Source: a virus. From it: a stretch of 64,000 nt of DNA. The notes under the pieces are model-generated. The model saw only the letters and a list, made by a program, of their open reading frames with translations, made no database searches and was not told the DNA's origin. A program made the position numbers and the translations under genes. Of the stretch, positions 2,451-57,215 are shown piece after piece (the stretch's first letter is position 1; each line of letters begins with the position of its first letter). The stretch lies in the IMG/VR virus record IMGVR_UViG_3300032144_000385, positions 4,766 through 68,765 of that record. One strand, given 5' to 3'.

Positions 2451-3235
2451 GCGGGGATCTGCGCCGTCACGGTGCCGTCTCGCTGGACCCATCGGCGCGT
2501 GCCGCAGGGGCAGTCCAAGAGCTCGGGGTAGGTGCCGGCCATACTTTTACGCTTCCAGTGGTGGGTGCCATCCGTGCTGCCCCGGCACGGGCGCTGACCG
2601 ACCTTTCTAATCGGGTCGACGCACGCGGCGAGTGGAATGGCCACTCCGCAGGTGCAGCGGGCGTTGCTGCCGAAGATGTACCATCCGTGCTCGCCGCCGA
2701 CGTGGGCGGGGCATGGGCGCAGCGATTGGTCTCGTAGGTTGCAGAGATCCTGGAAGAACTTGAAGGTGATCGAGAGCTCGATCTCCACGCTGTCGGCACC
2801 CACGGCGCGGATCCTCCCGACGTTGGTCCCCAGGACGAAGGCCGGTCGTCCGACGATGGCCTGGTCGTCGAGCAGGACGGCGAGGCACATCGCCGCCTCC
2901 CGCCGATTGAGGCGTTCCAGCTTTTCCTTCAGCGGCTCCTCGTTGAGCTCAGGCGGCGCCCGCCTCCCCGCCATGATCGCGTCCACCTTCGCGCGCCGCG
3001 CCGCGAGGTCCGCCGCCGCGGCGGCCTTGACGGACTCGGGCAGGTCGGACGCGACCGAGTCGTCGGCCTGGCGGTCGACCCCCTGGCAGTTCCAGCCCCA
3101 CCGCGTCCGGGTGAAGTACCAGCGCTGGCCGCGCACGGCCTCGCAGATGGCGACCTGCCCGTCCCGGCAGGGGCCGCGCTGCTCGAGCTCGGCCTTCACC
3201 TCGTCGGGCACGTCGTCCCAGAGGATGCGAGTCAC
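2447..3235 (-). CDS. hypothetical protein with WYFxxTxWGWN N-terminal domain and Cys/His-rich C-terminus
   Basis: GTG at 3235 overlaps the recombinase stop; C-terminal CPAH, CTC, C...H, CPCG motifs suggest Zn binding. Confidence 0.75.
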   Translation of the reverse strand: MTRILWDDVPDEVKAELEQRGPCRDGQVAICEAVRGQRWYFTRTRWGWNCQGVDRQADDSVASDLPESVKAAAAADLAARRAKVDAIMAGRRAPPELNEEPLKEKLERLNRREAAMCLAVLLDDQAIVGRPAFVLGTNVGRIRAVGADSVEIELSITFKFFQDLCNLRDQSLRPCPAHVGGEHGWYIFGSNARCTCGVAIPLAACVDPIRKVGQRPCRGSTDGTHHWKRKSMAGTYPELLDCPCGTRRWVQRDGTVTAQIPA

Positions 3236-3870
3236 GCCGCCCTCCGCACCATGTCGCGCACCACCTTCGGGACCCATGAGGCGCCGCCGCCGACGGGGGC
3301 GAACCCCTCGTGCCGCAGGCGGTCGCCGATCGACCGGAGCGACCAGCCCTCGGCGCGCAGCTCGCGCGCGCGGCGGCAGGCCGCCTCGGGGACGCGGTCG
3401 TAGCGCGACACGCGCTCGCCGCGGGACCGCTTCAGGGCCATGGCGGCCGTGGTGCGGTCGGAGATGAGGTCGCGCTCGAACTCGGCCAGGACGGCGAGGA
3501 GGCGGAAGACCATCTTGCCGGTGGCCGAGGAGGTGTCGATCCGCTCGGTCAGGGACACGAGGTCGCAGCCGGCCTTCTCGAGGCGCTCGGCCGTCTCCAG
3601 CATGCCGGTCGTCGACCGGGCCACGCGCGACATGGAGTAGGCCACCAGGGCGGAGCCCTTCCCGCCGGCCTCGGCCGCGGCCAGGGCCGCCACCAGTCCC
3701 TTGCGGTCCATTCGGCACCCCGAGCGGGCCTCGTCGCGGAACAGGACGAGCTCGCGCCCGCCCCCGTTCAGCTCGTGCCACGCCCGGATCTTCGACTCCT
3801 GAACCTCGAGCGAGACGCCCTCCCGGGCCTGCTCCTCGGTCGAGACGCGCACGTAGCCGACGACGATCAT
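3232..3870 (-). CDS. small serine recombinase (resolvase/invertase family) with C-terminal HTH
   Basis: GYVRVSTEEQ catalytic Ser motif, SG...DR, SRVAR, SLTERIDTSSATGKMVFRLLAVLAEFERDLISDRT. Confidence 0.95.
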   Translation of the reverse strand: MIVVGYVRVSTEEQAREGVSLEVQESKIRAWHELNGGGRELVLFRDEARSGCRMDRKGLVAALAAAEAGGKGSALVAYSMSRVARSTTGMLETAERLEKAGCDLVSLTERIDTSSATGKMVFRLLAVLAEFERDLISDRTTAAMALKRSRGERVSRYDRVPEAACRRARELRAEGWSLRSIGDRLRHEGFAPVGGGASWVPKVVRDMVRRAA

Positions 3871-3875
3871 GCCGA

Positions 3876-3920
3876 ACTATATCGGGAGGACCAGGCGGGG
3901 GAGGCGAGAGAATCCGGATT
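3876..3920 (-). promoter_or_regulatory. Putative leaderless promoter (-10 TATAGT) with upstream AATCCGGATTCTCTC element
   Basis: TATAGT at 3876-3881 lies 5 nt before the recombinase ATG; upstream element has the same 27-nt offset as at 1025/1052. Confidence 0.55.
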
Positions 3921-15550: not shown

Positions 15551-17943
15551 GAGAACGCCTCCTCCCTGGGCCGGTCCTGCAGGAGCTGGCCCTCCGTCCA
15601 CGAGAACTCGCCGCCCATGTACTCGGCCCACCGGCGGCGGGACTCCTCGAGCGTCGGCAGGACGAGGATGCGCGGCCGGTCGACGATCCGGGTCTCCCCG
15701 TCCTCGACCACGACGTGCGCCGGGCGGGCGAGCTGCTGGCGCTCGGCGCCGAGGCGCTCGAGCATGCGCCAGAGGCGCCCGACCCCGATGCGGTGCCCGC
15801 GGCCCCAGCTGCCGGCGTGCGACGTGAAGTCGTGCAGGACCTCGGTCCAGGCGATCCACTGCGGCCACGCCTCGCCCTCGCGGAACTGGCCGGCGCGGAG
15901 CTTCTCGAGCCACCACTCCTGCTCCAGCGGCAGGCTGTGCTCCTTCTGCTCCTGCTCGGCCGCGGTGTGCGGCACGTCGCGGGGCTCGAAGCGCGAGAGG
16001 TCGCGCGTCATGAGGAGGTGGAGGAGCGCCTCCCTCCCGCCCGCGGCGAGCTGCTCGCCGATCGCGCGGAAGTGGGGCTTGTCCTGGCGGTTCCCGTTGC
16101 CGACCTCGAGCACGAGGTAGCGGCGCTCGTGCGGGCCGGCGGGGACCACCCAGTCCTCGTTGGCCGCCATGATGATATGCAGGCAGTTCGCGGCGGTCTC
16201 GGCGGCGCGGAACTTCGCGCGCGCGACGCGGCGGCTCTCGGTGATCAGGCCCTTCAACACGGCCTCGTTCCGCTTGTCTCCGGCGAAGAACGCCTCGTCG
16301 GCGTAGAGGACCACGGTGTCGAGCAGGTGCTCGTTGAAGTCGCCGAACACGTCGCTCGGGCTCGTGATCGGGAAGAAGTGCCGCCCGAACAGCTCGCCGA
16401 AGTTGGTCGCGAAGACGCCCTTGCCGGCGCCGCGCGCGCCGCGCAGCACGATCGCGACGTGCGCCTGGTCCCCGGGGCGCTGCACCGCGCGCGCCATCCA
16501 GGAGAGCAGGTACTCGTAGTGCTCCTCGTTCCCCGCGCAGATGTTGCGCCGGACGTGGTCGAGGTAGAGCGAGCAGTCGCCGGGGACCGCCTCGCACGCG
16601 AAGCCGCGCCAGAGGTTGTACGCGCCCGGCACCGCGCGCCCGGGCGCGAAGAGCATGCGGTCGTACTGGCGGCGCTGCGGGTGGGCGAGCCACCAGCGGC
16701 CGAGGTCGCGCGTCCGCGGGTCGTCGCCCTCCTCGCCGGGGACCTCGACCGTGCGGTTGGAGTACCGGTTGATCATGTCCTCGAAGGTCTGCAGCGAGAA
16801 CACGTCCCGGCCGAGGACCGGGTCGAGGGACTCGGAGATCACGCGGCACTTGCCGCCGACGTCGGCCACGACGGCGTGGCGCGAGTTCAGGTCGGCGAGC
16901 AGCGGGTCGTCCTCCTGCTCGTGGGCGCGCTGGATCTGCTGCAGGGCGTAGCGCTCGGCGCGGCTGCCCTTGTCGAGGACGGACTCGCTGATCCCGAAGT
17001 CGGGGTCGGTGATCACCGAGTACACGACGTCGTCGGACACCCCGCTCCGGAGCAGGGAGCACACGACCCAGAACAGAGGCTCGGAGCGGCTCTTCCACCG
17101 CCGCGGGTGGTCGGGGTCGTGGCCGCGGTTGATCACGACCTTCACCCCGCCCGGCACGGTCTCGGGCAGCTCGTCGAGCGAGAGCAGGCGCTGGACGTTC
17201 GCCGTCTCGACCCGCCGCGGCGCCGGGGCCGGGAAGGTGGCGTCGCCCTCGCCCTGCCGGGGGGCGGCGGGCGTGAACGCGGACAGCGGGTGCGAGAGGT
17301 CCCAGTCGGCGGCGGCGACGCGCGCCACCGCGGGCGCGCGCCCGGCCGCGCGCTTCTTCGCGTCCGGCCAGTTGACCGTGCCCGGGAGGCGCATGAGCCG
17401 GTCGACGTTGTGGCAGTTGTCGCCGCCGAGGACCACCTCGAGCTGGATGTTCCAGCGCGCGGCCTCCTCGTAGGCCTCGGGCCGGCCGCCGACGTCCACG
17501 GGCTCGGCGAGGCGCCAGAGCATCTGGTAGCCGCCGCCGGAGTCGACGAGGACCGTAGGCCGCGGGAGGAAGGCCGGCCACCGGTCCCCGACCAGGGCCT
17601 CGATCCGCGCGCGCTCCTCGGCGAGGGGCTTCCGCTTGTCGGGGTCCACGTCGACGTGGAGCCACTCGAGGGCCGCCACGTCCTCGCGCGAGGGCTTCCG
17701 CGCCACCGGGCGCAGGAGCGGGTTCACGGTCCAGTAGAGGTTGCGCCCCGCGGCGTTCTCGCGCTCGATCCACGCGCGCGCCTCGTTCCCCTCGCGGGTC
17801 GCGAAGCTGCGCACCCGGATCTTGTCGGGGTCGCCGGTCGGGAGGTCGGGGTCGATGCGCGCCAGCGCCCAGAACCCCTCGGGGCGGACGCGGCGCAGGA
17901 AGTCGACCGCGGCCTGGGGGTCAGGGGTCGTCGGGGAAGTCAC
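15547..17943 (-). CDS. primase-helicase (RepB-like AEP primase + SF3/NrS-1-type DUF5906 helicase)
   Basis: HVDVD, LVDSGGGYQMLWRL, RLMRLPGTVN; Walker A GARGAGKG, Walker B LYADE. Confidence 0.92.
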   Translation of the reverse strand: MTSPTTPDPQAAVDFLRRVRPEGFWALARIDPDLPTGDPDKIRVRSFATREGNEARAWIERENAAGRNLYWTVNPLLRPVARKPSREDVAALEWLHVDVDPDKRKPLAEERARIEALVGDRWPAFLPRPTVLVDSGGGYQMLWRLAEPVDVGGRPEAYEEAARWNIQLEVVLGGDNCHNVDRLMRLPGTVNWPDAKKRAAGRAPAVARVAAADWDLSHPLSAFTPAAPRQGEGDATFPAPAPRRVETANVQRLLSLDELPETVPGGVKVVINRGHDPDHPRRWKSRSEPLFWVVCSLLRSGVSDDVVYSVITDPDFGISESVLDKGSRAERYALQQIQRAHEQEDDPLLADLNSRHAVVADVGGKCRVISESLDPVLGRDVFSLQTFEDMINRYSNRTVEVPGEEGDDPRTRDLGRWWLAHPQRRQYDRMLFAPGRAVPGAYNLWRGFACEAVPGDCSLYLDHVRRNICAGNEEHYEYLLSWMARAVQRPGDQAHVAIVLRGARGAGKGVFATNFGELFGRHFFPITSPSDVFGDFNEHLLDTVVLYADEAFFAGDKRNEAVLKGLITESRRVARAKFRAAETAANCLHIIMAANEDWVVPAGPHERRYLVLEVGNGNRQDKPHFRAIGEQLAAGGREALLHLLMTRDLSRFEPRDVPHTAAEQEQKEHSLPLEQEWWLEKLRAGQFREGEAWPQWIAWTEVLHDFTSHAGSWGRGHRIGVGRLWRMLERLGAERQQLARPAHVVVEDGETRIVDRPRILVLPTLEESRRRWAEYMGGEFSWTEGQLLQDRPREEAFS

Positions 17944-18364
17944 GGGATCGGGAGGAGAGGAGGCGGGGGAGCTCTCGACGCATCTCGGCGCGGTCGGCCC
18001 ACCGGGCCACCGCGGCGGCGCGGAGCTCGGGGACGGGGACGCGGCCCAGGATTCTAGCAGCCACGCCGCCCTCCAGGAGGAGGACCTCCTTCTCCTGGAC
18101 GGACTCGATCAGCACGTAAGTCTCGCCACCGACCCGACTTCGGCGCAGGTGGCGGACCTTCTGCTCGGGGGTCCAGTGCTCCACGCGGACGGGGGTGTTC
18201 CGGTTGGCCGGCCAGCGCGTGAGGGACTTCAGCTCGAGCCAGCCCTCGGCGTAGTTCACGTCCGGGGTGCCAGGCAGGGCGGGGTTCTCGACGGCGATGG
18301 CGTCGAGGGCCGCGAGGCACGCGACGACGACCCGCCGGAGGCTGCTACGCTCCCGAGCGGGCAC
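17921..18364 (-). CDS. PD-(D/E)xK nuclease (VRR-NUC/Holliday junction resolvase-like)
   Basis: VEN...PGTPDV...WLELK...EQ. Confidence 0.85.
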   Translation of the reverse strand: MPARERSSLRRVVVACLAALDAIAVENPALPGTPDVNYAEGWLELKSLTRWPANRNTPVRVEHWTPEQKVRHLRRSRVGGETYVLIESVQEKEVLLLEGGVAARILGRVPVPELRAAAVARWADRAEMRRELPRLLSSRSRDFPDDP

Positions 18365-18527
18365 GGCACGCCTCTAGGAACGCGCGGATGTCGGCCGCGA
18401 GGCCCGTCTCAGACTCGGGGGGTACGCAGGACGCGACGGCGAACTCCGCGTCCAGCATGCGCTGCAGCTGCTCCGCGTGGCGCGCGCACTGCTCGATCGC
18501 GCGGCCCTCGAGCTCGACGGGGCTCAC
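18345..18527 (-). CDS. hypothetical protein
   Basis: Track ORF, coupled. Confidence 0.55.
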   Translation of the reverse strand: MSPVELEGRAIEQCARHAEQLQRMLDAEFAVASCVPPESETGLAADIRAFLEACRARSGA

Positions 18528-18685
18528 GACAGCTTGAACGCCACGCTGGCGCGCAGGGGGCCGACGGCGAGGTCGAGGTGCAGGCTGCCGCCCCGGCGCG
18601 CGACATACACGCCGACGAGGAAGCAGCCCGGGTCGAGCCCGAGGCTCGCCGAGCCGCCGGGCGTGTGGAAGGTGCGGGTGATCAC
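18524..18685 (-). CDS. hypothetical protein
   Basis: MITRTFHTPGGSASLGLDPG...; GTGA overlaps. Confidence 0.5.
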   Translation of the reverse strand: MITRTFHTPGGSASLGLDPGCFLVGVYVARRGGSLHLDLAVGPLRASVAFKLS

Positions 18686-18870
18686 GGGGAGGGGGTCTCC
18701 GAGAAGATGCCGTCGCTCACGATGCGGTCGACGACGTCGCAGATGGACAGGATGTGGGTCTTGCAGAGGCCGACGATCCTCGGCCCGGTGGTCGTGTAGA
18801 ACACGACGTCGAGGGCCGGCGGCGCGCCGCACCTGACGCAGGGTGTCGGGAGCAGGAGTACGGGGATCAC
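18682..18870 (-). CDS. small Zn-finger protein
   Basis: PCVRCG...LCKTH; GTG overlaps the polA stop. Confidence 0.55.
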   Translation of the reverse strand: MIPVLLLPTPCVRCGAPPALDVVFYTTTGPRIVGLCKTHILSICDVVDRIVSDGIFSETPSP

Positions 18871-20852
18871 TCGACCTCGCCCCAGCTTCGGCCGTGCTCG
18901 GGCTTGACCAGGTGGGGCACGCTGCAGGGTACCGCGTTCAGCATGATCTCCGCAAGCTGAATCGAGGTTCGGCGGTCGCCGACCGAGAGGTCGAGCTCGT
19001 CGTGGACCTGGAGCTGCAGCGCGATCCCGGCCTCGTCCGCGTCGACCATGGCCCGCTTGATCTGGTCGGCGCTCGAGCCCTGCACGACGCGGTTCGTCGC
19101 CTTGTGGGTCCAGTCGTAGCCCGGCCGGCCGTCGCGGTGGCGCGGGAAGCGGCACACGCGCCCGAGCACGGTGCGGACGTAGCCCTGGCGCTTGGCGACC
19201 TTCTCGGTCTCCTGGTTCAGCTCGCGGATGAACGGCGCGCCGCGGTGGAAGTCGTCCATCACCGCCTGGCCCTCGTCGCCCGCGACCTCGATGTAGCGGC
19301 CGCTCCTGGTCTCGACCCAGCGCGTGGGCTTGCCGAGCTGCCGGCAGAGCTTGGGGCCGCCCATGCCGTACGCGATCCCGAGGTAGACGGTCTTGGTGCG
19401 CTCCTTGCCCTCGTCGCCGGACCAGCCGATGCGGTCGCGCAGCACCTCGTAGAGCTTGGTCGCGGGGTCGCGCCGGAAGGCGTCGCGCATCTCGGCCGCG
19501 CCGGTGCAGCGCGTCTCCGCGGCGAAGTGGATGAGCCAGCGCGGCTCCTGCGCGCTGTAGTCGAGGCACGCCCACTCGGCCCCCTCGTCGGCGAGGTAGG
19601 CCTTGCGCCAGATCGCGCCGATTGCGGGGTCGCGGACCGGCTGGTTCTGGAGGCTCGGGTCGGTGGCCGACACGCGGCCGCTGATCGTGCCCTCGTCGTC
19701 GTCCGAGGCGTCGTCCTTCGCGCGCTTGACCTGGTTGAACGTGCAGTGCACGCGGCCGCGGACCTGGTGGTCCCGCAGCTGCTGGACGTAGGTCGTGCGC
19801 AGCTTGGAGAACCGGCGCGCGCGCAGGTACAGGTCCACCGCGGGGTGGTGCAGCGCGCGCAGCTTCGGCGCCTTGAGCTCGTGCTTGTTCGTCTCCGTGC
19901 GCCCGAGCTTCAGGCCCAGGGCCGACTCGATCAGCGGGCCGACCACGGCCGACTTCGCGAGGTCGGAGGGCTGCAGGCGGCGCCCGACCGCGGTCGAGAA
20001 GGCCGCGCAGGCGTCCTCCTCCTCGCGGAGGCAGCGCGCCTCGACGACGTCGAGGTGCGGCAGGTCCACGCGCACCCCGCGGCGGCGCATGCCGAGCAGG
20101 ACCGGCAGGAGGCGGGACTCGAGGTCCCAGAGCGAGCGCAGGCTCGCCGCCCGGCCGGACGCCACGCGCGCGTCGGCCGAGTCGGTGGCCGCGAGCCGCC
20201 GCTCCTGGGCCTCGAGGATCTCGAGCGGCCGGAGCGCGTCGACCTCGGCGTAGGGGCCGACGTGGCGCGAGGGCAAGCGCCAGATGTGGGCCTTGGGGTT
20301 CCACTTCCGGTTGCCGCGGCGCTCGCCGGCGCAGAAGTGCCGCGCCGCCTGGTCGAGGAGCGCCTCGTCCTTCCCGGCGAGGCCGTTCCGCTCGGCCACG
20401 GCCTGCAGCGAGTAGGAGAACTGGAGCTCGTCGAGCAGGGGCTCGAGCACCTGGATGTCCCGGAACCGGCGCGGCCGGAACCGGACCCCGGCCTCCTCGA
20501 GGTAGTCGAGGTCGTAGGGCAGGTTCGCCCCGACGATCTCGGCCGCGTTCTCGGTCGCCGCGGCCTGGTCGCGGAGGTACGCGAGCACGGCCTCCGGGTC
20601 GAGGTTACCGCCGCCCTCGTGGCGGATCGGGAGGTACCACCCGCGGCGCGCCTCGCCGGGCCGGTCGATCGAGAACGAGATCCCGACCACGTAGCCCCCG
20701 CGGCGCACCCCGATCCCGAGGTCGTCGCCGATGCTGTCGTCGCGGGTCTCCGTGTCGATCGAGACGCGGGTCGCCCCGCGCCAGGAGGGCAGCGAGGAGA
20801 GCTCCGGCGGCCGCCACCCGGTGACCGGGGCGAAGAGGCGCAGCTGGACCAC
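18867..20852 (-). CDS. polA: family A DNA polymerase with 3'-5' exonuclease domain
   Basis: Exo I SIDTET; motif A LDYSAQEPR; motif B RTKTVYLGIAYGMG; NRVVQGSSAD; motif C LQVHDEL. Confidence 0.97.
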   Translation of the reverse strand: MVQLRLFAPVTGWRPPELSSLPSWRGATRVSIDTETRDDSIGDDLGIGVRRGGYVVGISFSIDRPGEARRGWYLPIRHEGGGNLDPEAVLAYLRDQAAATENAAEIVGANLPYDLDYLEEAGVRFRPRRFRDIQVLEPLLDELQFSYSLQAVAERNGLAGKDEALLDQAARHFCAGERRGNRKWNPKAHIWRLPSRHVGPYAEVDALRPLEILEAQERRLAATDSADARVASGRAASLRSLWDLESRLLPVLLGMRRRGVRVDLPHLDVVEARCLREEEDACAAFSTAVGRRLQPSDLAKSAVVGPLIESALGLKLGRTETNKHELKAPKLRALHHPAVDLYLRARRFSKLRTTYVQQLRDHQVRGRVHCTFNQVKRAKDDASDDDEGTISGRVSATDPSLQNQPVRDPAIGAIWRKAYLADEGAEWACLDYSAQEPRWLIHFAAETRCTGAAEMRDAFRRDPATKLYEVLRDRIGWSGDEGKERTKTVYLGIAYGMGGPKLCRQLGKPTRWVETRSGRYIEVAGDEGQAVMDDFHRGAPFIRELNQETEKVAKRQGYVRTVLGRVCRFPRHRDGRPGYDWTHKATNRVVQGSSADQIKRAMVDADEAGIALQLQVHDELDLSVGDRRTSIQLAEIMLNAVPCSVPHLVKPEHGRSWGEVE

Positions 20853-21106: not shown

Positions 21107-21853
21107 TCAACCGAACACGTCCCCGCCGTCGAGCTCCGGGGCCTCGGCGCGGCGCACGTACTCCTCGATGGACTCCTGGCCGCCGCAGAGGCCGCGCTGG
21201 TCGCACGTCCGGCAGGCGTCGCCCTCCCAGACGTCGCCGGGCTCGGCGCCGCCGGCGATCTCCTTCATGATGGAGGCCTCGTCGAGCAGGTTCGACCACT
21301 CCGCGCGGCAGCGCTCGGCCGGGATCTCGGCGTGCACCTCGCGCGCCGGCCCGAGGCCCGGCTCGACCGGGATCTGGTTGTGCCGCACCACGACGGGCCG
21401 GGAGAACCCGGTCGCGCGCGAGAGGATGGCCGCGTAGCAGAGCATCTGCGCGTCCTCGCCGATCCATCGCCGGGCGCCGGGGCGGCCGCTCGCGAGGTAG
21501 GCGCGGCCGGAGGCCGCGAAGGTCTTGTGGTCGTGCACCTCGGGGACCAGGGTGCCGGGGTCGAGGTACAGCGCGTCGACCTTGCCGGCGATCTCGAAGG
21601 CGCCCTCGGACGACTGGACCTTGACCTCGACCAGGGGCGGCGGCTCGAGGCGCAGGACGGGGCGCGCGACCTCGAGGATCGGGTCGGCCCGGTCGTGGTC
21701 CCTGCCCCCGAGCACCGCGGCGAGGAGCGCGTGGACCCGGTCGCCGCGGCCGCGGCGGTTCCGCCGGACCTCGGGGAGCCGCATCACGTACTTCCAGTAC
21801 CAGGCGCGGGGGCACTTCCTGAACAGGACGTGCTGGGAGGGGGAGGTGCGCAA
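21107..21853 (-). CDS. Cas4/RecB-like PD-(D/E)xK exonuclease
   Basis: SPSQ...CPRAWY, G..VH, GKVD, DHKT, QMLCY, CRTC...C. Confidence 0.9.
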   Translation of the reverse strand: MRTSPSQHVLFRKCPRAWYWKYVMRLPEVRRNRRGRGDRVHALLAAVLGGRDHDRADPILEVARPVLRLEPPPLVEVKVQSSEGAFEIAGKVDALYLDPGTLVPEVHDHKTFAASGRAYLASGRPGARRWIGEDAQMLCYAAILSRATGFSRPVVVRHNQIPVEPGLGPAREVHAEIPAERCRAEWSNLLDEASIMKEIAGGAEPGDVWEGDACRTCDQRGLCGGQESIEEYVRRAEAPELDGGDVFG

Positions 21854-21857
21854 CGGG

Positions 21858-23132
21858 TCACTTTCCGCTGCCGCCGGCCAGCACGCCGTCGCGCCAGACG
21901 CGGAGCTTGTCGGCCTCGGGGCCGGTCGGGGGAAGGGGGGTCGTCTCGAGCGGGTCGTTCAGGAGGTCGTACAGCTCCTCGACCCCGTCGGGGCGCGTCA
22001 GGAGCTTCCAGCGCCGGCCGATCGCCGCGCGGTCGAGGCGCGGCGGGGGCGACCAGGCGAACACGAACGGCCGCGGCCCGGGCACCGGCCCGAGGAACGT
22101 GGCGGCGAAGGAGAGGCCGTGCGAGAGGCCGCTCGCGGCGTCGGGGCGCGGCTGGATGTTGACGATGCGCGCCAGGGTCGGCAGGAGGTCGACGCCGACG
22201 TGCACGAGGGCCTGGCTCTCGCTCGGCACCACCCCCGGGCCGCGGACGATCAGCGGGACGCGGATCCCGTCCTCGTAGCAGGTCAGCTTCACGCGCGCGG
22301 GGTCCTGCTCGGGGCGGGTCGCGACGGTGTCGGCCGGGTCCTGGCCGGGGACGATTCCCGGGGTCCCGTTGTCGCCGAGGAAGACGATCCAGGTCGAGGG
22401 CCCGACCAGGGCCGCGATCTGGCCCACGGCCACGTCGAGGCCGGCGATCTCGGCCTCGTAGGCCTCGCGGTTCGTGCAGGGGACGTGCGGGCACTGCGGG
22501 TAGCCCGGCGGCAGGATCGAGGGCGGCGGGCGCTTGAACGGCGCGTGCCCGGCCGCGAAGTTCACGATGGCGAAGCGGGGCGAGGGGGTCTCGGTCCACC
22601 ACTGGACGAAGGCGTCCCGGCAGGCGATCGTCTCGTCCCCGCCGGCGGAGGGCGAGGCGACCCCGTCGTCGAGGCGGACCACGCCGCAGGACTCCCCGAC
22701 CGGGCGGCCGTTCAGGACCCGGTCGTAGCCCTCGAGCTCCGGGGCGAGCTGCCAGTCCCCGACCTCGGGGACGCCGAGGTGCCACTTGCCGATGTGGGCG
22801 GTGTTGTAGCCCTGGCCGTCCAGGACCTCGGCGATCGAGAGGTCGTTCGGGTCCCGGGAGACCGAGACCGGCAGGGCGCAGGCGTCCCCGCGGAAGACGC
22901 CGAGCCAGCGCGAGCGGTCCATGCTGTCGCGCGTCGGGGCGCACCAGCCGTGGGAGTAGGCGCGGCGGTACCGCACCCCCTCGGCCGCCAGGGCGTCGAG
23001 GCTCGGGGTCCATCCGGCCGCGGACACGTCGTCGATGTCCGAGTCGGCGATGTCGTCTCCGACGATGATCACGATGTCCGGCCGCGCGGGGGCGGCCTGC
23101 AGGAGGGCCAGGAGCAGGGCGGCGAGGATCAT
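21858..23132 (-). CDS. secreted Cys-type (formylglycine-dependent) sulfatase
   Basis: Signal peptide; PDIVIIVGDD; TPSLDALAAEG; CAPTR; GKWH; H.PF; GDN; K..YEDGIRVPLIVRGPG; DLLPT; ELYDL..DPLE. Confidence 0.9.
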   Translation of the reverse strand: MILAALLLALLQAAPARPDIVIIVGDDIADSDIDDVSAAGWTPSLDALAAEGVRYRRAYSHGWCAPTRDSMDRSRWLGVFRGDACALPVSVSRDPNDLSIAEVLDGQGYNTAHIGKWHLGVPEVGDWQLAPELEGYDRVLNGRPVGESCGVVRLDDGVASPSAGGDETIACRDAFVQWWTETPSPRFAIVNFAAGHAPFKRPPPSILPPGYPQCPHVPCTNREAYEAEIAGLDVAVGQIAALVGPSTWIVFLGDNGTPGIVPGQDPADTVATRPEQDPARVKLTCYEDGIRVPLIVRGPGVVPSESQALVHVGVDLLPTLARIVNIQPRPDAASGLSHGLSFAATFLGPVPGPRPFVFAWSPPPRLDRAAIGRRWKLLTRPDGVEELYDLLNDPLETTPLPPTGPEADKLRVWRDGVLAGGSGK

Positions 23133-23141
23133 GTCCCCAGC

Positions 23142-23762
23142 CTAGCGGGCCGGCGCGCGGCGGTAAAGGCGGCGGTAGAAGCGTACGACCTGGTCCGCCT
23201 GCACGGCGGCGTCGTCGAGGGCCGAGTGCTTGACCAGGGGCGAGGTCTCGAGCACCTCGGCCCAGCCGTCCTGGCCGGACTGCATCGCGGCCTTGGCCGC
23301 GGCGATCACGGTGCGGAGGTCCTGCTCGTTCCGGTGCTGCCAGGGCTCGTCGACCCCGAACTTCGCCAGCTGGGCGCGCAGGGTCACGAGGTCGTACTGC
23401 GGCGGCTTCGCCCACACGGTGAGCTCGGCGTCGCGGCCGTTTATCGTCCGCAGCGACGCGGCGAACGCCGCCAGGAAGGCGCGGTAGTCGTCGTGCCGCG
23501 GCTCGCGGATCAGCGCCTCGCGCGCGTCCTGCGACTGGGCGAGCCACCACTCGACGGTGTCGGCGTTGACCTCGAGCCCGGCGCGCGACGCCGCCCCGAG
23601 CGAGCACCGGACCTCGACCCAGTACGCGGCCGGGGCGACGGAGCAGTCGTCGGGGTGGATCTGGAAGGGCACGACGCCGATCGAGAGGACCGCGGCGCTC
23701 GGCCCGTGGCCCATCGTCTCGACGTCGATCATCACGTTGCGGTAGCGGGAGGGCGCGGTCAA
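23142..23762 (-). CDS. DEDDh 3'-5' exonuclease (RNase AS/ExoVIII N-terminal-like)
   Basis: MIDVET...SIG...TVEWW...WAK..YDL...D.RT...HSALDDA. Confidence 0.9.
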   Translation of the reverse strand: MTAPSRYRNVMIDVETMGHGPSAAVLSIGVVPFQIHPDDCSVAPAAYWVEVRCSLGAASRAGLEVNADTVEWWLAQSQDAREALIREPRHDDYRAFLAAFAASLRTINGRDAELTVWAKPPQYDLVTLRAQLAKFGVDEPWQHRNEQDLRTVIAAAKAAMQSGQDGWAEVLETSPLVKHSALDDAAVQADQVVRFYRRLYRRAPAR

Positions 23763-24109
23763 CGGGAGGCCTTCTGCTGGGCTCGCCAGCGAACGAGGTC
23801 CCTGATGTCGGCGAAGACGGGGATCCGGGCGGCGCGCGCCGCTGCCACCTCGGCGCGGGCGCCGGAGGAGCGCTCCCAGTCCGAGGTGAGCAGGACGGCG
23901 TCGCAGCGGCGCAGGATCTCGAGGTCGCCCTCGAGCCACACCTCGTCGGGCGCGGCGCCCTGGAAGAACCGCGTGTTCGTGTGCGGGCAGATAACCGCGA
24001 ACCCGGCGCGCCACGCCTCGAGCGCGAGGCGCTCGGCGCGGCGGATGTTCTCCTCGATGTCCCATGCGGAGGGGCCGCGGAACGGCCCTGCGATGTAGAC
24101 GACCCTCAC
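23759..24109 (-). CDS. nucleoside 2-deoxyribosyltransferase-like protein (DUF4406/DUF1937)
   Basis: VYIAGP...ICPH...RRCDAVLL...WERSSGARAE. Confidence 0.85.
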   Translation of the reverse strand: MRVVYIAGPFRGPSAWDIEENIRRAERLALEAWRAGFAVICPHTNTRFFQGAAPDEVWLEGDLEILRRCDAVLLTSDWERSSGARAEVAAARAARIPVFADIRDLVRWRAQQKASR

Positions 24110-24453
24110 GGCGCGAACTCGAAGGTGCGTCGAACCCGGCCGTCGCCGAGCTCGAGGAGGACCGGGGCGAGACCCTCGTCCCCGGAGTACATGCAGCCCC
24201 AGCCCCGCGTGGGGCCGGAGGCGACGACGCCGTCGGCCGCCTCGGGGCGGTTCAGGTTGAACCGGCCGATGCAGCTGAAGGCGAAGTAGCGGTCGGCCTC
24301 GGGGACGCCGATGTCCTTGAGGTCCTTGTAGCGCTGCACCTGGCCGCACGCGGGGCAGGCGAATCGCCAGAGGCGCGCGTCCGCGGTGTTGAACCGGGCC
24401 GCGCCCTCGGCCTGCCACTCGGCGAGGGTCAGGGGACGGAGGGTGTCAGCCAC
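24106..24453 (-). CDS. VVA0879-family phage protein
   Basis: EW.AEG..RF...WRFACPACG...SCIGRF...GC.Y. Confidence 0.7.
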   Translation of the reverse strand: MADTLRPLTLAEWQAEGAARFNTADARLWRFACPACGQVQRYKDLKDIGVPEADRYFAFSCIGRFNLNRPEAADGVVASGPTRGWGCMYSGDEGLAPVLLELGDGRVRRTFEFAP

Positions 24454-24790
24454 GATCGTCGACCTGCTCGGCGTTCCGCGCGTAGCCGCACACGTCCACG
24501 AGGTTGTCGCGCTTCGGCGCGTTCGCGTCGCGCGAGACCTTCAGGAGGATCATCATCATGCAGACGTCGCGGGCGCCGAGCGCCTGCGTGATCCCGTACT
24601 TCCGCCGCAGGTACGCGGTCCAGAGCTCGGCCGTGTTCCCGTGGTTGTCGGACGGGTGGCCGTAGTAGCGCTGCCGGTCGCCGGCCGTCACGCGCGCGGC
24701 CTCGGCGAGGACGGACTCCGGCGGCGGGGCGAACTGCTCGGGGAGCATGGTCCGCGCGTCGAAGTCGGAGGGCTGGGAAGAGAGCGGCAT
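24446..24790 (-). CDS. DUF6378 family protein
   Basis: GDRQRYYGHP.DN...AELW...DVCMMMILLKVSR...DNLVDVCGYA. Confidence 0.85.
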   Translation of the reverse strand: MPLSSQPSDFDARTMLPEQFAPPPESVLAEAARVTAGDRQRYYGHPSDNHGNTAELWTAYLRRKYGITQALGARDVCMMMILLKVSRDANAPKRDNLVDVCGYARNAEQVDDRG

Positions 24791-24825
24791 GAGGTTTTAG
24801 TAGGTCGTCATTGGAAAAGTTCTCC

Positions 24826-25071
24826 TTAGCGGTCCTCCGGCACCGACGTCGTAATCCGCTTCAGGCGGCACACGTCGCAGGGACACTCCCCGGGGCGGAG
24901 GAAGCGGAAGTCCACCTCGCCCGTGCGCTGGTCGATCGTCCGCTCGGCGACGCCGGCCTCGATCGCCTCGACCCTCAGTCCGGCGCGACCGACGTTGTAG
25001 CCGAGGAAGCCGCCGAGCCCGAAGAATATGGCCACCCAGACCAGGCACACGCCCACGCTGTCGTCGCTCAC
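24826..25071 (-). CDS. small membrane-anchored protein
   Basis: MSDDSVGVCLVWVAIFFGLGGFLGY...; GTGA overlap. Confidence 0.55.
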   Translation of the reverse strand: MSDDSVGVCLVWVAIFFGLGGFLGYNVGRAGLRVEAIEAGVAERTIDQRTGEVDFRFLRPGECPCDVCRLKRITTSVPEDR

Positions 25072-25718
25072 GGTCGCTTCCTCCGAGGGATGATGTTCTC
25101 CAGGCTCTGCAGGTACGTCCGCCAGAACACCCAGTCGATCGCGGTGTGGAAGCCCCACGACCGGCGGTGCGGCCCCCAGAGGACCAGCGTCACCGTGCCG
25201 GGGTCGACCTCGACGATGCGGTGCGCGTCGGTGGCGCGGCGGAACGCGACGGAGAGGAGGCCGCGCCGCGCGGTCCGCGTCGGCATGCCGTGCACGGAGA
25301 GGCCGAGGTCGTAGCGGTTGCCCTCGAGCCGCAGCTCGTGCTCCACGGTCGCGGGGGCCGGCCGCTCCTCGACGTAGCCGCCGCGCAGCACGATCGACAC
25401 GAAGGACCGCGGGTGGTCGTGCATGTCGCGGCCCGGGTCCGGGGCGCGGATCAGGTGCACGCTCGCCTGCGCGAGGGGGCAGCGCGCGAGGTACAGCTTG
25501 GTCATGTAGTGGGCCCCGGCGAACCAGAGCTCCTGCCAGCGCCACGCGGCGTACCGCTGGTCGTCGCCGAGCTCGCGACGCTCGCCGCCCTGGACGAGCG
25601 AGAACCACGCGACGGCGATCAGGGACCAGACCGCCACCGGGACCGCGAGCTCGGTCGGGAGGAACGTCATCGCGGCAGCCGCGGAGAGCGAGGCCACGGA
25701 GAGCTGCAGGCGGCTCAC
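25068..25718 (-). CDS. membrane-anchored cupin-like protein
   Basis: N-terminal TM; PD..RDMHDHP..FVSIVLRGGYVE...HRI...TLVLWGP..RSWGF. Confidence 0.75.
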   Translation of the reverse strand: MSRLQLSVASLSAAAAMTFLPTELAVPVAVWSLIAVAWFSLVQGGERRELGDDQRYAAWRWQELWFAGAHYMTKLYLARCPLAQASVHLIRAPDPGRDMHDHPRSFVSIVLRGGYVEERPAPATVEHELRLEGNRYDLGLSVHGMPTRTARRGLLSVAFRRATDAHRIVEVDPGTVTLVLWGPHRRSWGFHTAIDWVFWRTYLQSLENIIPRRKRP

Positions 25719-25939
25719 GCCCCACGCTCCGGCCAGGCGACGAGGAGGTCGAGGCCCGCCGCCGCGGCGACGGCGACGAGGGTGCCGACGCGGGTCGAGC
25801 GCCGGCCGCCCTCGATGTTGGCCACGGTGCGCGCGTGCACCCCCGCGGCCGCGGCGAGCTCGGCCTGGGTCAGGTCGAGGTGCGCGCGCCGGCGACGCAG
25901 GCGGCGTCCGATCTCGGCGATCATCTCTCGGGGGCTCAT
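25715..25939 (-). CDS. XRE-family HTH regulator
   Basis: LTQAELAAAAGVHARTVANIEGG. Confidence 0.92.
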   Translation of the reverse strand: MSPREMIAEIGRRLRRRRAHLDLTQAELAAAAGVHARTVANIEGGRRSTRVGTLVAVAAAAGLDLLVAWPERGA

Positions 25940-26106
25940 CGGCGGTCCTTCCTCGCGCGGCCGCGCTCGGCGGCGCGGCGCATCCCGGCGCGAACGTCCA
26001 AGCCTACCCCGCGGAGGGCGGCCTCGAGCTGCTGACGGAGGTTCTTCGGGCCCATCGGGGCGTGGTCGCAGGGGCGGAGGCCGAGGAGGAAGGCGCGCTG
26101 GTTCAC
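25936..26106 (-). CDS. hypothetical protein
   Basis: MNQRAFLLGLRPCDHAP...; fills the gap with GTGA/ATGA overlaps. Confidence 0.45.
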   Translation of the reverse strand: MNQRAFLLGLRPCDHAPMGPKNLRQQLEAALRGVGLDVRAGMRRAAERGRARKDRR

Positions 26107-26375
26107 CGCCACGGGAGGAGCCTCCTCAGGCGGGCGAGGAGCCGCTGGGACGCGCGCGGCACGACCCGCACGTTGACCGCGCCGGCCAGGATCTCGACGC
26201 CCTTCGGGTAGACGGTGAGGTCCATCGTCGTCTGGTAGGTCTCGGCGTCCAGGTGCAGTGCCAGCGACTTGATCGGGATCAGGCTCGTGACGTCCTTCTC
26301 CCCGAGGAAGACCTGGAAGTCGGTGGTCGGCGTCGCGCCGATCTTGAAGAGGAGTCGCCCGGATGTGCTGCTCAT
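26103..26375 (-). CDS. hypothetical protein
   Basis: Track ORF, coupled. Confidence 0.65.
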   Translation of the reverse strand: MSSTSGRLLFKIGATPTTDFQVFLGEKDVTSLIPIKSLALHLDAETYQTTMDLTVYPKGVEILAGAVNVRVVPRASQRLLARLRRLLPWR

Positions 26376-27499
26376 CGGATCAGTCCTTGGCTCAGGGGGA
26401 GCGCGTGGTCGGGGAGGGGGAGGATCGGCTCGCGCGAGACGTCGAGGCCGCGCGCGGCCGCGACCTCGCGGATCGCGGGGGTGTTGTTCCCGGCGATGCG
26501 CGTCGCGCCGTCGGGGATGTTAGTGGTCTGGACCTGCAGGCCGCGACCGTAGATCGCGTTGCCCTCGATCGTGAGGCTGCGGCAGGAGCGGTGCGAGCCC
26601 GGGGAGAGGTTCCCGACGCGGATCACGGTCGAGTAGCCCTCGGGGCCGCCGTCGGCGCGGATCAGGTTGCGCCGGATGATCACGTCGCCGTTCCGGTAGG
26701 GCGAGTCCTGCGCGCCCTGCGGCCAGCCGCGCAGCGAGCCGTCGTCGACCATGATGGCGCGCGCGTGGAGCGGGGTGTCGCTCGGCATCCAGAACTGGTT
26801 GTCCTCCACCGTGAGGTGGGAGGCCCCGCCCTCGCACACGATGGCCCCGCTGCCGCGGGAGGTCCAGGGCATGCCGGTTCGCTTGAAGACGCACCGGCGG
26901 ATGACCTGACGCGCGCGGGGGCCCGGCCAGGGGACCTCCTCGCGGTCGGGGCGCGCCTTGACGTGCTGCGCGCCCGACTCCATGAACTCGACCGCCTCGA
27001 TCAGGCTGCCGAGGTCGGCCCAGCAGTGCTGGTAGACCGAGTGCTCGGTCGAGCGCCCGTACCAGACCACGCCGTGGCGGAGCAGGAGGTCGGCCCGGTA
27101 GGTGAAGATCCCCCAGCACACCGAGGAGACCTGGCCCGCCGCCGGGTCCTCGGCCACGAGCTCGAAGTCCTCGACCTCCAGGCGGAAGCGCCGGGAGAGC
27201 GGGGCGACCGAGTCCGGCTCCCCGGCCATGAGCGCCGAGCGCCCGCGACCGTGGATGCTCAGGCTCTCGAAGCGGACCGTGCCCTGGTGCTCGGCGACGA
27301 AGAGGTTGGTCCAGACTCCGGGGGCGGGGCGGATGCGCGTGCGGCCGCGCCCGCGGCCGATGAACCGGACCCCGCGGTAGCCCTGGGCGAGCCAGGTCGC
27401 CGGGTCGTAGAGCCGCCCCCCGTTGTCGAGGCGCCGGCCGACGTCGAACCCCGGGACGTCGCCCTCGGGGAGCCTGATCTCGAGAAGTCCCTTAGCCAT
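26372..27499 (-). CDS. right-handed parallel beta-helix protein (pectin lyase-like)
   Basis: GVRFIGRG.GRT, VRFESLSI, repeated V.IRRC.F / LTVEDNQF / VIIRRNLI / LTIEGNAI / IAGNN stacks. Confidence 0.65.
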   Translation of the reverse strand: MAKGLLEIRLPEGDVPGFDVGRRLDNGGRLYDPATWLAQGYRGVRFIGRGRGRTRIRPAPGVWTNLFVAEHQGTVRFESLSIHGRGRSALMAGEPDSVAPLSRRFRLEVEDFELVAEDPAAGQVSSVCWGIFTYRADLLLRHGVVWYGRSTEHSVYQHCWADLGSLIEAVEFMESGAQHVKARPDREEVPWPGPRARQVIRRCVFKRTGMPWTSRGSGAIVCEGGASHLTVEDNQFWMPSDTPLHARAIMVDDGSLRGWPQGAQDSPYRNGDVIIRRNLIRADGGPEGYSTVIRVGNLSPGSHRSCRSLTIEGNAIYGRGLQVQTTNIPDGATRIAGNNTPAIREVAAARGLDVSREPILPLPDHALPLSQGLIR

Positions 27500-55154: not shown

Positions 55155-57215
55155 TCAGATGCCGCCGCCCAGATCGTAGACGACCCGGCGTCCGGCGGAA
55201 AGGTCGGTCGCCGCGGCGTGCCCGGCCAGGAGGTCGAGGAGCAGCCGGCGCCCGGCCGCGAGGACGTGCACGTCCGCGATGGCCTCGGCGTCGGTCCCCG
55301 CGAGGACCGCGGCGGGGACGGTGAGGACCCCCGTCGCGAGGAACCGCTCCGCGGCCGCGGCCGTCAGGACGACGGCGCCGACCAGGACCCCGCCCGAGGC
55401 GGTGATCGCGACGGCGGCGGCCGCGGTGGCGGAGCCCGCCAGGATCGCGGCCGCCTGGGAGACGGCCCCAGAGGCGGCGACCTTCTCAAGCGCGGAGCCG
55501 GCGAGGACCGTCGGCGCGGCCGAGACAGCCCCCGAGGCCGACGCGCGCTCCGCGGCGGATCCCGCGAGGACCGCGACCCCGACCGAGAGGGCTCCCGAGG
55601 CCGAGAGCCGGCCGGCCGCGGAGCCCGCGAGGATCGCGGCCGCGGTCAGGATCGACCCCGACGAGGCGAACCGCTCCGCGGCGGAGCCGGCGAGGACCGC
55701 GGCGGCGGCCGCGGCGGCGCCCGAGGCGGCGACCTTCTCGAGCGCGGAGCCGGCGAGGACCGTCGGCGGCCGCAGGACGGCGCCGGACGCGGCGAACCGC
55801 TCGAGCGCGGCGCCGGAAAGCACGGTCGCCCCGGCGGTCAGCGACCCCGAGGCCTGGAACCGCTCCGCGGCCGCGCCCGACAGGGCGGCGCGCTGCACGG
55901 CGAGGGCGCCCGAGGCGGTGAACCGCTCCGTCGCGGCCCCCGCCAGCACCGCGCGCGCGACGGTCATCGCGCCGGTCGGGGGCGGCTCCTCGACCACCAG
56001 GATCGCGACCGGCGAGTCCGCCGCCGCGGTCGAGCTCACGTTGTACGTGTACCCCGTCGCGGTGAAGGCGACGTGGTTCAGCACGTACTCGTGCAGGGTG
56101 GCCGTCGACACTGCGTCGACCATGTTGGCGCTGGAGGTCAGCGACTGCGTGCCCGAGGTGCCGATGCCGTCGCGCGCGTTCCAGGTGACGCAGGCCTGGG
56201 TGCCCGACGCGGAGCTCGCGGCGCCGACGCTGATCGAGCCGGTCGTGTTCGAGACCGAGTCGGCCGCGGTCACGCGCGTCCCGGCCGCCATGATGAAGCA
56301 CCCGCGCCGGCCGGGGGCCGTCTCGGTCGACTGCCCCGAGGTGTCGACGTTGAGGGTCGGGGACCCGACGTACACGTTCCGGCCCGCGACGCGGAACCAG
56401 AGGTACATCGCGTCGACGGCGGACGCGGTGAGGCTCTTGATCGTGAACCCGGTGCTGTCCCAGGACGAGACCTGGACGCGCGCGGTCTCCGTCACGGCGC
56501 CGGCCACGCCCGTGATGGTCGAGACGCAGGCGTCGGTGCGGACCATGGACCCCGAGGAGGTCGAGCCCGCGGCGTTGTCCTCGGCCGTGACGGTCGCGGC
56601 CGCGTTGCCGCCGCTCGAGCGGCCCGCGAACCCGACGGACAGGCGCGCGACCGTCGTGCCGAGGTCGGCCGCGAAGTCCTGGCCGACGCTGAGGGCGATC
56701 AGGCCGTCGGGCGTCACGCCCGGCGCGGTCGTGGCGACCGTGCCGTTCAGCGAGCCCGAGCTCTTGAGGTTCAGCACCCCGGCCAGCATGTCCGCGCCCC
56801 AGAGGAACACGGCGTACCCGCGGTAGGCGTTCGACGGCTCGTCGCCGCTCGCCCAGTTGATCGTGACCTGGTCGGTCCCGAACGAGACGAAGGTGGCGCG
56901 CGCCTCCTTCCCCTGGTTCACCGTCCCGGTGATCTGGATGCACGCGCCGGTGTCGATGCGCGAGCCGCTGTCGGCGTTGAGCGCCGGCTGGCCGTTCTCG
57001 GCCATGACCGCGACCGCGCGCTGCGTGCTCCCGTCGGCCGCCCCGCCGCCGATCATCGCCTGCGCGGTGATCGTGTCGAGCGCGGTCGCCCGCGAGACCA
57101 GGAACAGGACGGCCTTGGGCGTCTTGCCCGGGCCGCTCGGGATCGAGATGGTCTGGTTCCCCGACGCCGTGGCGACGGAGAACGGGACTACCGAGAAGCC
57201 GTAGTCGAGGGCCAA
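55155..57215 (-). CDS. large virion accessory/fibre-like protein with C-terminal 21-aa repeats
   Basis: Ser/Thr/Ala-rich beta body; about 10 repeats of ERFxASGxxxxxxxVLAGSAA. Confidence 0.75.
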   Translation of the reverse strand: MALDYGFSVVPFSVATASGNQTISIPSGPGKTPKAVLFLVSRATALDTITAQAMIGGGAADGSTQRAVAVMAENGQPALNADSGSRIDTGACIQITGTVNQGKEARATFVSFGTDQVTINWASGDEPSNAYRGYAVFLWGADMLAGVLNLKSSGSLNGTVATTAPGVTPDGLIALSVGQDFAADLGTTVARLSVGFAGRSSGGNAAATVTAEDNAAGSTSSGSMVRTDACVSTITGVAGAVTETARVQVSSWDSTGFTIKSLTASAVDAMYLWFRVAGRNVYVGSPTLNVDTSGQSTETAPGRRGCFIMAAGTRVTAADSVSNTTGSISVGAASSASGTQACVTWNARDGIGTSGTQSLTSSANMVDAVSTATLHEYVLNHVAFTATGYTYNVSSTAAADSPVAILVVEEPPPTGAMTVARAVLAGAATERFTASGALAVQRAALSGAAAERFQASGSLTAGATVLSGAALERFAASGAVLRPPTVLAGSALEKVAASGAAAAAAAVLAGSAAERFASSGSILTAAAILAGSAAGRLSASGALSVGVAVLAGSAAERASASGAVSAAPTVLAGSALEKVAASGAVSQAAAILAGSATAAAAVAITASGGVLVGAVVLTAAAAERFLATGVLTVPAAVLAGTDAEAIADVHVLAAGRRLLLDLLAGHAAATDLSAGRRVVYDLGGGI

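Follow-up and report, generated by a model that had tools for sequence, protein, structure and literature searches.

A formylglycine-type sulfatase in a siphovirus genome

The 64,000-nucleotide stretch of DNA analysed here (the window) comprises bases 4766–68765 of IMG/VR virus record IMGVR_UViG_3300032144_000385, a siphovirus record of 70,718 bp with a CheckV completeness of 100%. Its G+C content is ~73%, and nearly all of its genes lie on the minus strand, as do all the window genes and motifs discussed below. Our subject is an open reading frame at 21858–23132 encoding a protein of 424 residues, P0001, which an initial annotation had read as a formylglycine-type sulfatase. Translation would begin at the first ATG past the upstream stop; the stop codon of the frame is at 21858–21860. 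It is packed between genes for two nucleases, within a block of replication genes.

Several lines of evidence bear on the identity of P0001. The Pfam family Sulfatase (PF00884) matches it from end to end, with 86.8 bits where the curated cut-off is 25, and with coverage of profile positions 1–300 out of 301. The AlphaFold2 model is confident (pLDDT 93.9) and displays the alkaline-phosphatase-like α/β fold with a C-terminal subdomain. In Foldseek searches, the model matched more than 40 structures of sulfatase family S1 with probability 1.00, at TM values of 0.66–0.75 and sequence identities of 17–26%. TM reached 0.75 for the S1_16 sulfatase 9fo1 and 0.72–0.75 for other S1 sulfatases; the S1_19 enzyme PsS1_19B, an exo-4S-kappa-carrageenan sulfatase (6prm, 6psm), and a putative E. 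coli arylsulfatase (3ed4) have the same two-subdomain fold and fall in this range. A profile of 30 homologues searched against PDB matched 84 solved sulfatases, the best being 6prm (E 5e-52) and 9fo1. All of the best matches, by sequence as well as by structure, are bona fide sulfatases. NCBIfam returned choline sulfatase and arylsulfatase matches that were all below threshold, and in PHROGs the N-terminal part of the protein matched one unannotated family. Phosphoethanolamine transferases and lipoteichoic acid synthases, which also belong to PF00884, were considered and rejected: their nucleophile is a Thr or Ser outside any CxPxR motif and their N-terminal domain spans the membrane several times, whereas P0001 has the cysteine of a CxPxR motif, a single short N-terminal hydrophobic segment and only 424 residues. 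Given the Pfam match, the model and the complete set of catalytic residues, P0001 is almost certainly a family S1 (Cys-type, formylglycine-dependent) sulfatase, in agreement with the initial annotation.

A complete catalytic set and an altered signature

Every catalytic element named in the initial annotation (DD, CxPxR, GKWH, H, DN and K) aligns with its counterpart in 6prm and is conserved across the 30 homologues. The putative metal-binding aspartates D26–D27 (23052–23057) are invariant in our alignment A1 and pair with the DD of 6prm. The predicted formylglycine precursor C64 pairs in the profile alignment with the catalytic Cys77 of PsS1_19B, and a helix begins at this residue in the model. 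K116-W-H118 of the GKWH motif (22779–22787), which would supply the sulfate-binding and catalytic Lys/His, corresponds to GKWHLG of 6prm; the catalytic histidine H196 (22545–22547) corresponds to the histidine of NAVHTP; D254–N255 (22368–22373), the predicted remaining metal ligands, correspond to DN; and the sulfate-binding lysine K282 (22287–22289) likewise has its lysine counterpart. Ten positions are invariant among the 30 homologues (D26, D27, C64, P66, R68, K116, H118, H196, N255 and K282), and D254 is conserved in at least 90%.

The sequence that follows CxPxR is atypical. The core C64-A-P-T-R68 lies at exactly 22929–22943, where the initial annotation had placed it approximately, and the whole signature, C64-A-P-T-R68-D-S-M-D-R-S-R75, spans 22908–22943. 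In place of the extended xxx-L/M-T-G-R/K signature, P0001 has D-S-M-D-R-S-R, with only the final arginine retained. Such a non-LTG extension does not exclude membership in S1, as this part of the motif is auxiliary and variable among S1 subfamilies. The close homologues share the pattern C-x-P-T-R-D-[SA]-[LMF]-x-x-[SG], while more distant ones retain CSPTRxxxxTGR. Because the replacement is conserved across the 30-member subfamily, the altered motif is a subfamily signature and not a sign of decay. The initial annotation had allowed that the change might betray a dead enzyme; this concern is not borne out by the conservation. Two further cysteines, C85 (22878–22880) and C149 (22686–22688), are kept in 30 of 30 sequences, and a disulfide between them is possible. 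As judged from its sequence, the sulfatase is genuine and probably active.

A predicted export leader

The N-terminus of P0001, MILAALLLALLQAAPA, is a hydrophobic, signal-like leader. Residues 1–17 (23082–23132), MILAALLLALLQAAPAR, were read as a predicted Sec signal peptide with a possible A-P-A cleavage site; the hydrophobic region has 10 residues, and the A-P-A motif stands just ahead of the first strand of the fold. A hydrophobic segment stands at the N-terminus of nearly all of the 30 subfamily proteins; in many it is longer and typical of signal peptides, and several members have a cysteine at a lipobox-like position. Export of P0001 is accordingly predicted to be likely. For the joint claim that P0001 is both active and exported in its natural host, our confidence is comparably good.

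A mostly phage-borne subfamily

Database searches revealed a tight group of ~30 proteins of 400–446 residues that are 36–66% identical to P0001. Below this group, identity drops to 30–35% for generic sulfatases, several of which are named as coming from Planctomycetota metagenome-assembled genomes. In a maximum-likelihood tree the ~30 proteins form a clade with support of 98/98.

We read the genomic contexts of twelve homologues. Ten contexts, the window included, are phage, and the contigs concerned are independent and come from different samples. The position of the sulfatase within them varies. It is found behind genes for a lambda-E-type capsid protein and connector (L001, L007 and L113), behind portal, Mu-F, GP7 and Gp80 genes (L006 and L112), behind baseplate and tail-fibre genes (L003), inside replication modules (L002 and L111) and among unannotated small genes (L110). 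The homologues P0028 (47% identity) and P0035 (39% identity) reside in ordinary cellular neighbourhoods. All ten phage contexts belong to two subclades on the tree, and P0028 branches between them. The subfamily thus appears to be mostly phage-borne.

Sulfatases are otherwise scarce in the viral collections searched. Among 50,697 deposited phage records there were 5 weak sulfatase matches, and a scan of IMG/VR with the single sulfatase sequence found no relatives. A pattern scan of IMG/VR with alignment A1 recovered 22 viral loci with more distant sulfatases, the closest being 38% identical; two of these records have terminal repeats. In GTDB genomes, the best sulfatase match among the matches listed was 32% identical. 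Scanning IMG/VR with the PolA of the phage gave no match. Phrases such as 'phage-encoded sulfatase' were not found in the literature searched.

Two of the homologous loci carry additional genes of note. In L113, the gene of the closest sulfatase homologue (P0004) is immediately preceded on its upstream side by an HNH_3 homing-endonuclease-like gene (L113:3388–3858), which might help to move the cassette. The sulfatase-bearing contig L002 (Logan SRR14194061) encodes at 17507–19225 a Ro60/TROVE protein with a vWA domain, a protein of the RNA-quality-control type that is unusual in phages.

Genomic neighborhood of the sulfatase

The record contains a set of siphovirus virion genes: large terminase, portal, head–tail adaptor, major head protein, tape measure and tail proteins. 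Its replication block includes two helicases, a methyltransferase, an Rv2179c-like exonuclease, a PD-(D/E)XK nuclease, PolA and a primase. The sulfatase is flanked by nucleases, PolA and primase on one side and by helicases and tail genes on the other.

Its immediate neighbors are closely packed. Upstream lies the Rv2179c-like 3′–5′ exonuclease (23142–24065; PF16473, 115 bits; phrog_255, exonuclease), whose stop codon is separated from the sulfatase ATG by 9 nt. The exonuclease domain occupies residues 110–293 of the longest open reading frame, which opens with ~107 Arg/Pro-rich residues (23745–24065) that match nothing. Translation probably begins around residue 108 (MIDVETMGH), close to 23744, in which case ~320 nt upstream would be unexplained. 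Downstream, 4 nt separate the sulfatase stop codon from the TTG start of the PD-(D/E)XK nuclease (21107–21853; PF12705, 60 bits; phrog_69, exonuclease). The composition of the sulfatase gene matches that of the other phage genes in both relative synonymous codon usage (r 0.988) and tetranucleotide frequencies (r 0.955). A scan for sigma-70 promoters and terminators detected no signals specific to the sulfatase.

The closest relative that we found is a 70,468-bp contig with a PolA 70% identical to that of the phage. Its replication module runs methyltransferase, two small genes, PD-(D/E)XK nuclease, two small genes, PolA and primase; no sulfatase gene occurs within 10 kb. Because the relative has the same module order without the sulfatase, the gene occupies a variable slot of the replication module, outside its conserved core. 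The initial annotation described the gene as embedded in the replication module; this is correct as to location, but not in the sense of belonging to the core. Since it is packed between nucleases, has phage codon usage and is absent from the corresponding region of the closest relative, the sulfatase is lineage-specific accessory cargo of the phage and not host contamination. The claim that a co-oriented gene flanked by phage nucleases does not mark the edge of a host contig is upheld by the 9-nt and 4-nt gaps and by the completeness of the genome.

Compared with the relative, the block gained between the methyltransferase and the PD-(D/E)XK nuclease (21858–27499) consists of a beta-helix gene, a phrog_4786 gene, a DUF6378 gene, the exonuclease and the sulfatase, and marks a hot spot for accessory genes. 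The phrog_4786 gene (25068–25718) carries the label 'cysteine dioxygenase' (E 2e-29). We did not use this label as a link to sulfur metabolism: the annotation has no Pfam or PDB sequence match behind it and looks unreliable.

An inert passenger, that is, recently captured host DNA that is neither matured nor used, or a chimeric assembly, is very improbable: the phage has no maturase and its closest relative no sulfatase, but the gene is wholly phage-like in codon usage and tetranucleotide profile, packing is operon-tight, and the catalytic set is conserved over 30 diverged copies, ten of them on independent phage contigs.

Elsewhere in the window, a gene at 3232–3876 encodes a small serine recombinase or invertase (phrog_95, phrog_125), which might serve as an integrase or as an invertase; the phage relatives all appear as free contigs of 60–73 kb. 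The window has no tRNA genes. The nearest cultured phages are the Roseobacter RDJL phages (portal, 49%) and Pseudomonas Mesyanzhinovviridae (PolA, 45%), which is a weak clue that the host, like theirs, is among Pseudomonadota.

Probable dependence on a host maturase

In bacteria, formylglycine is formed in the cytoplasm by the formylglycine-generating enzyme (FGE) or by anSME. The initial annotation noted that the window has no FGE. This holds for the whole 70,718-bp record, in which neither FGE (PF03781) nor a radical SAM protein (PF04055) was found. As the phage has neither FGE nor a radical-SAM maturase, it must, we infer, rely on the maturase of its host (FGE or anSME), as the initial annotation had supposed. 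FGE was also absent from all five of the other sulfatase-bearing virus records tested, and host-maturase dependence looks like the rule for sulfatase-bearing phages. Phage-encoded FGE genes have been reported as auxiliary metabolic genes in Pseudoalteromonas phages (PMC10232697). Those phages have a maturase without a sulfatase, whereas the present phage and the five other virus records have a sulfatase without a maturase.

Recurrent partner genes

An all-against-all comparison of the loci exposed a recurrent neighbor. In nine of them (L001, L003, L006, L007, L112, L113, L008, L013 and L023), the sulfatase is followed directly downstream by the gene for a homolog of P0123, a protein of 686 residues encoded in the head/virion module of the window (55155–57215). 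L110 adds a tenth adjacency of the sulfatase with this family (hhalign probability 98.8%). The ten include loci whose sulfatases are only 29–38% identical to P0001.

According to the AlphaFold2 model, P0123 would consist of three tandem beta-sandwich domains followed by C-terminal repeats. Residues 1–414 are modeled confidently, and the remainder, of low confidence, comprises about a dozen repeats of ~18 residues resembling AVLAGSAAERFxASG. P0123 has no match in Pfam, PHROGs, PDB (Foldseek) or deposited phages. Compared with phage tail-fibre tips, its single domains reach borderline Z values of 5–6, which are a lead only. The family is large in metagenomes, with 4,242 representative clusters at E <=0.001; many members have ~430 residues, and some exceed 2,000, the module being present in several copies.

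Pairwise identities of the sulfatases correlate with those of their P0123-family neighbors (r 0.78 in the close clade; Mantel r 0.47, reached by 159 of 5000 permutations), and the sulfatase pairs of highest similarity are found on different capsid backbones. A joint transfer of the sulfatase and the P0123-family gene would fit, although shared ancestry can also yield such a correlation. The gene directly upstream of P0123 encodes a virion structural protein, P0124 (57229–57696; phrog_3758, E 5e-32), and in L003 a P0124 homolog is directly upstream of the sulfatase.

Two candidate carbohydrate-active proteins recur as well. P0125 (26372–27499) is a right-handed beta-helix protein (ESM Atlas 0.96; TM 0.65–0.70 to Beta_helix/NosD clusters) and a candidate polysaccharide lyase or hydrolase; its homologs are encoded 0.7–2.4 kb from the sulfatase in L002, L008 and L023. 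P0126 (5896–7257) is a GH-A-like candidate with YGNELWN and CYEAG motifs. Its Atlas leads to GH44/39/79 score only 0.76, its structure matches unnamed 'cellulose-binding' clusters at TM 0.82, and sequence searches of Pfam and PDB gave no match for it. Homologs of P0126 occur in L001 (57%), L007 (75%) and L111 (55%, 0.2 kb downstream of the sulfatase).

Proposed function

The explanation that we favor is a lineage-specific cargo sulfatase that is matured by the host, exported and acts by desulfating a host glycan. The gene would be co-transcribed with the replication genes, and Cys64 of CxPxR would be converted to formylglycine by host FGE or anSME. The hydrophobic leader, as its sequence and the lipobox-bearing relatives suggest, would then carry the enzyme across the inner membrane, and sulfate esters would be hydrolysed in the envelope or outside the cell by the canonical metal/formylglycine chemistry. 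Gene neighborhood points to a sulfated glycan of the host, on its surface or outside the cell, as the most likely substrate, the same one that the glycan-handling proteins of the phage would meet. Its desulfation could edit the receptor or matrix, either destroying or masking the receptor; this would limit re-adsorption to infected cells and debris, limit superinfection or ease release. We favor a host glycan as the target because a fibre-like virion gene adjoins the sulfatase in ten loci, carbohydrate-type folds recur nearby and the phage has no other gene for sulfur assimilation. Taken as a whole, this explanation has in our estimate an even chance of being right; for its most exposed part, a surface or matrix glycan as the target, the chance is close to even, if not slightly lower.

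A number of observations weigh against this explanation. The closest characterised sulfatases are only 20–26% identical to P0001 and are uninformative on the substrate. The leader of P0001 has no basic (positively charged) n-region, and in several phage copies of the sulfatase the leader is very short. In the window itself, the sulfatase is 32 kb away from P0123, so that the synteny on which we draw is that of other phages. The virion or binding role of P0123 is read from gene position only, and its best structural matches, single-chain or trimeric C1q/TNF-like heads, are borderline (Z 7.5). Moreover, the adjacency could mark a preferred insertion slot instead of a functional pair, since most of the ~4,242 P0123-family clusters have no known sulfatase neighbor. 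Finally, P0125 and P0126, which are encoded outside virion modules, lack signal peptides; until lysis, an exported sulfatase would therefore be in a different compartment from both.

A more specific version of host-glycan desulfation would make the two adjacent genes a mobile 'bind and erase' cassette of uncultured phages, with P0123 as a pseudo-trimeric C1q/TNF-like virion lectin for a sulfated surface polysaccharide and the exported sulfatase as the matching receptor-destroying enzyme. We regard this version as rather speculative and somewhat unlikely. A literature search on sulfated phage receptors returned nothing relevant.

Among the alternatives, the strongest is that the sulfatase is an auxiliary gene for sulfur scavenging, in which the exported enzyme frees sulfate from environmental organic sulfate esters for the Cys and Met of virions. 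It would parallel the pstS and phoA genes that phages carry for phosphate. A predicted-exported enzyme with a complete active site suits this role, as does the location of the window gene in an early/replication operon and not among virion genes. The structural neighbors include arylsulfatases of Klebsiella and Pseudomonas, which are sulfate-starvation enzymes. Yet no PAPS reductase or sulfotransferase, nor any other sulfur-assimilation gene, was found in the phage, and scavenging fails to explain why in ten other phage loci the sulfatase occupies the virion module beside a fibre-like gene. Sulfate freed outside the cell would also be a shared good, with little return within one latent period. 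We consider scavenging unlikely.

Two further possibilities appear quite improbable. The sulfatase could be a virion-associated enzyme that is not secreted but packaged with, or attached to, a P0123-like fibre, and that desulfates the receptor or capsule at adsorption in the manner of a tailspike depolymerase. In most phage loci it is indeed encoded directly between virion genes, and maturation would not require export, since FGE and anSME act in the cytoplasm. The conserved hydrophobic leader and its lipobox variants, however, typify exported proteins and not virion proteins, and in this phage the gene is part of the replication operon, with 32 kb between it and the virion genes. Comparably improbable is a substrate other than sulfate. 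Members of the alkaline-phosphatase superfamily are promiscuous, and formylglycine-dependent phosphonate monoester hydrolases exist, so the main substrate of P0001 might be a phosphonate monoester, a phosphodiester or some different ester. The atypical sequence after CxPxR, the low identity to any characterised sulfatase (20–26%) and the location of the gene between two nucleases are in keeping with this idea. Against it, the sulfate-binding residues K116, H118, H196 and K282 are all invariant, the best sequence and structure matches are without exception bona fide sulfatases, and the export leader speaks against a role in nucleic-acid metabolism.

Comparison with known systems and implications

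P0001 shares with the solved S1 structures the CxPxR nucleophile motif, the metal ligands and the Lys/His sulfate-binding residues. It differs from them in its low identity (20–26%), its shorter length (424 residues), its carriage by a phage, the replacement of LTGR by D-[SA]-x-x-x-[SG] and the two extra invariant cysteines. The structural neighbors AtsA of P. aeruginosa (1hdh; P51691) and AtsA of Klebsiella (Q9X759) are Cys-type S1 enzymes with the same catalytic residues. Unlike P0001, to which they are ~20% identical, they are larger (536–577 residues) and have a cellular role in sulfate starvation; the phage sulfatase is linked to virion/glycan-type genes and not to sulfur regulons.

In its way of working, the proposed role resembles that of the phage T5 lipoprotein Llp, which blocks the protein receptor of its own phage by binding to it and whose gene lies beside that of the receptor-binding protein (pb5/oad). 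In both cases an exported or lipidated protein would neutralise the receptor used by the phage itself, and its gene would accompany that of a virion binding protein. The analogy is in working only: enzymatic desulfation of a glycan is proposed here, the two proteins have no relationship in sequence or fold, and the receptor role of P0123 is putative.

The enzyme family is textbook knowledge, and sulfatase-related viral accessory genes are already known. What is new is a distinct, mostly phage-borne S1 subfamily that has its own signature and a conserved pairing with an uncharacterised virion-type family. Its members are preserved intact on no fewer than eleven phage backbones. This is of interest all the more as sulfatases are almost absent from sequenced phages, judging by the few weak matches in deposited records.

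If P0001 does edit a host glycan, sulfate esters would be a determinant of phage adsorption or exclusion, and hosts of such phages would have unrecognised sulfated envelopes or matrices. The subfamily would also be a source of compact (~400 residues) sulfatases with new specificity. Should the 'bind and erase' version be true, it would represent a phage counterpart of haemagglutinin/neuraminidase logic built on sulfate esters, and sulfated glycans would be phage receptors in a group of high-GC bacteria in which such glycans are so far undescribed. If scavenging is true instead, organic sulfate esters would join the nutrients that phages help their hosts to mine. With either a host glycan or environmental sulfate esters as the target, the dependence on a host maturase would make the sulfatase a readily testable case of accessory cargo whose function is confined to suitable hosts.

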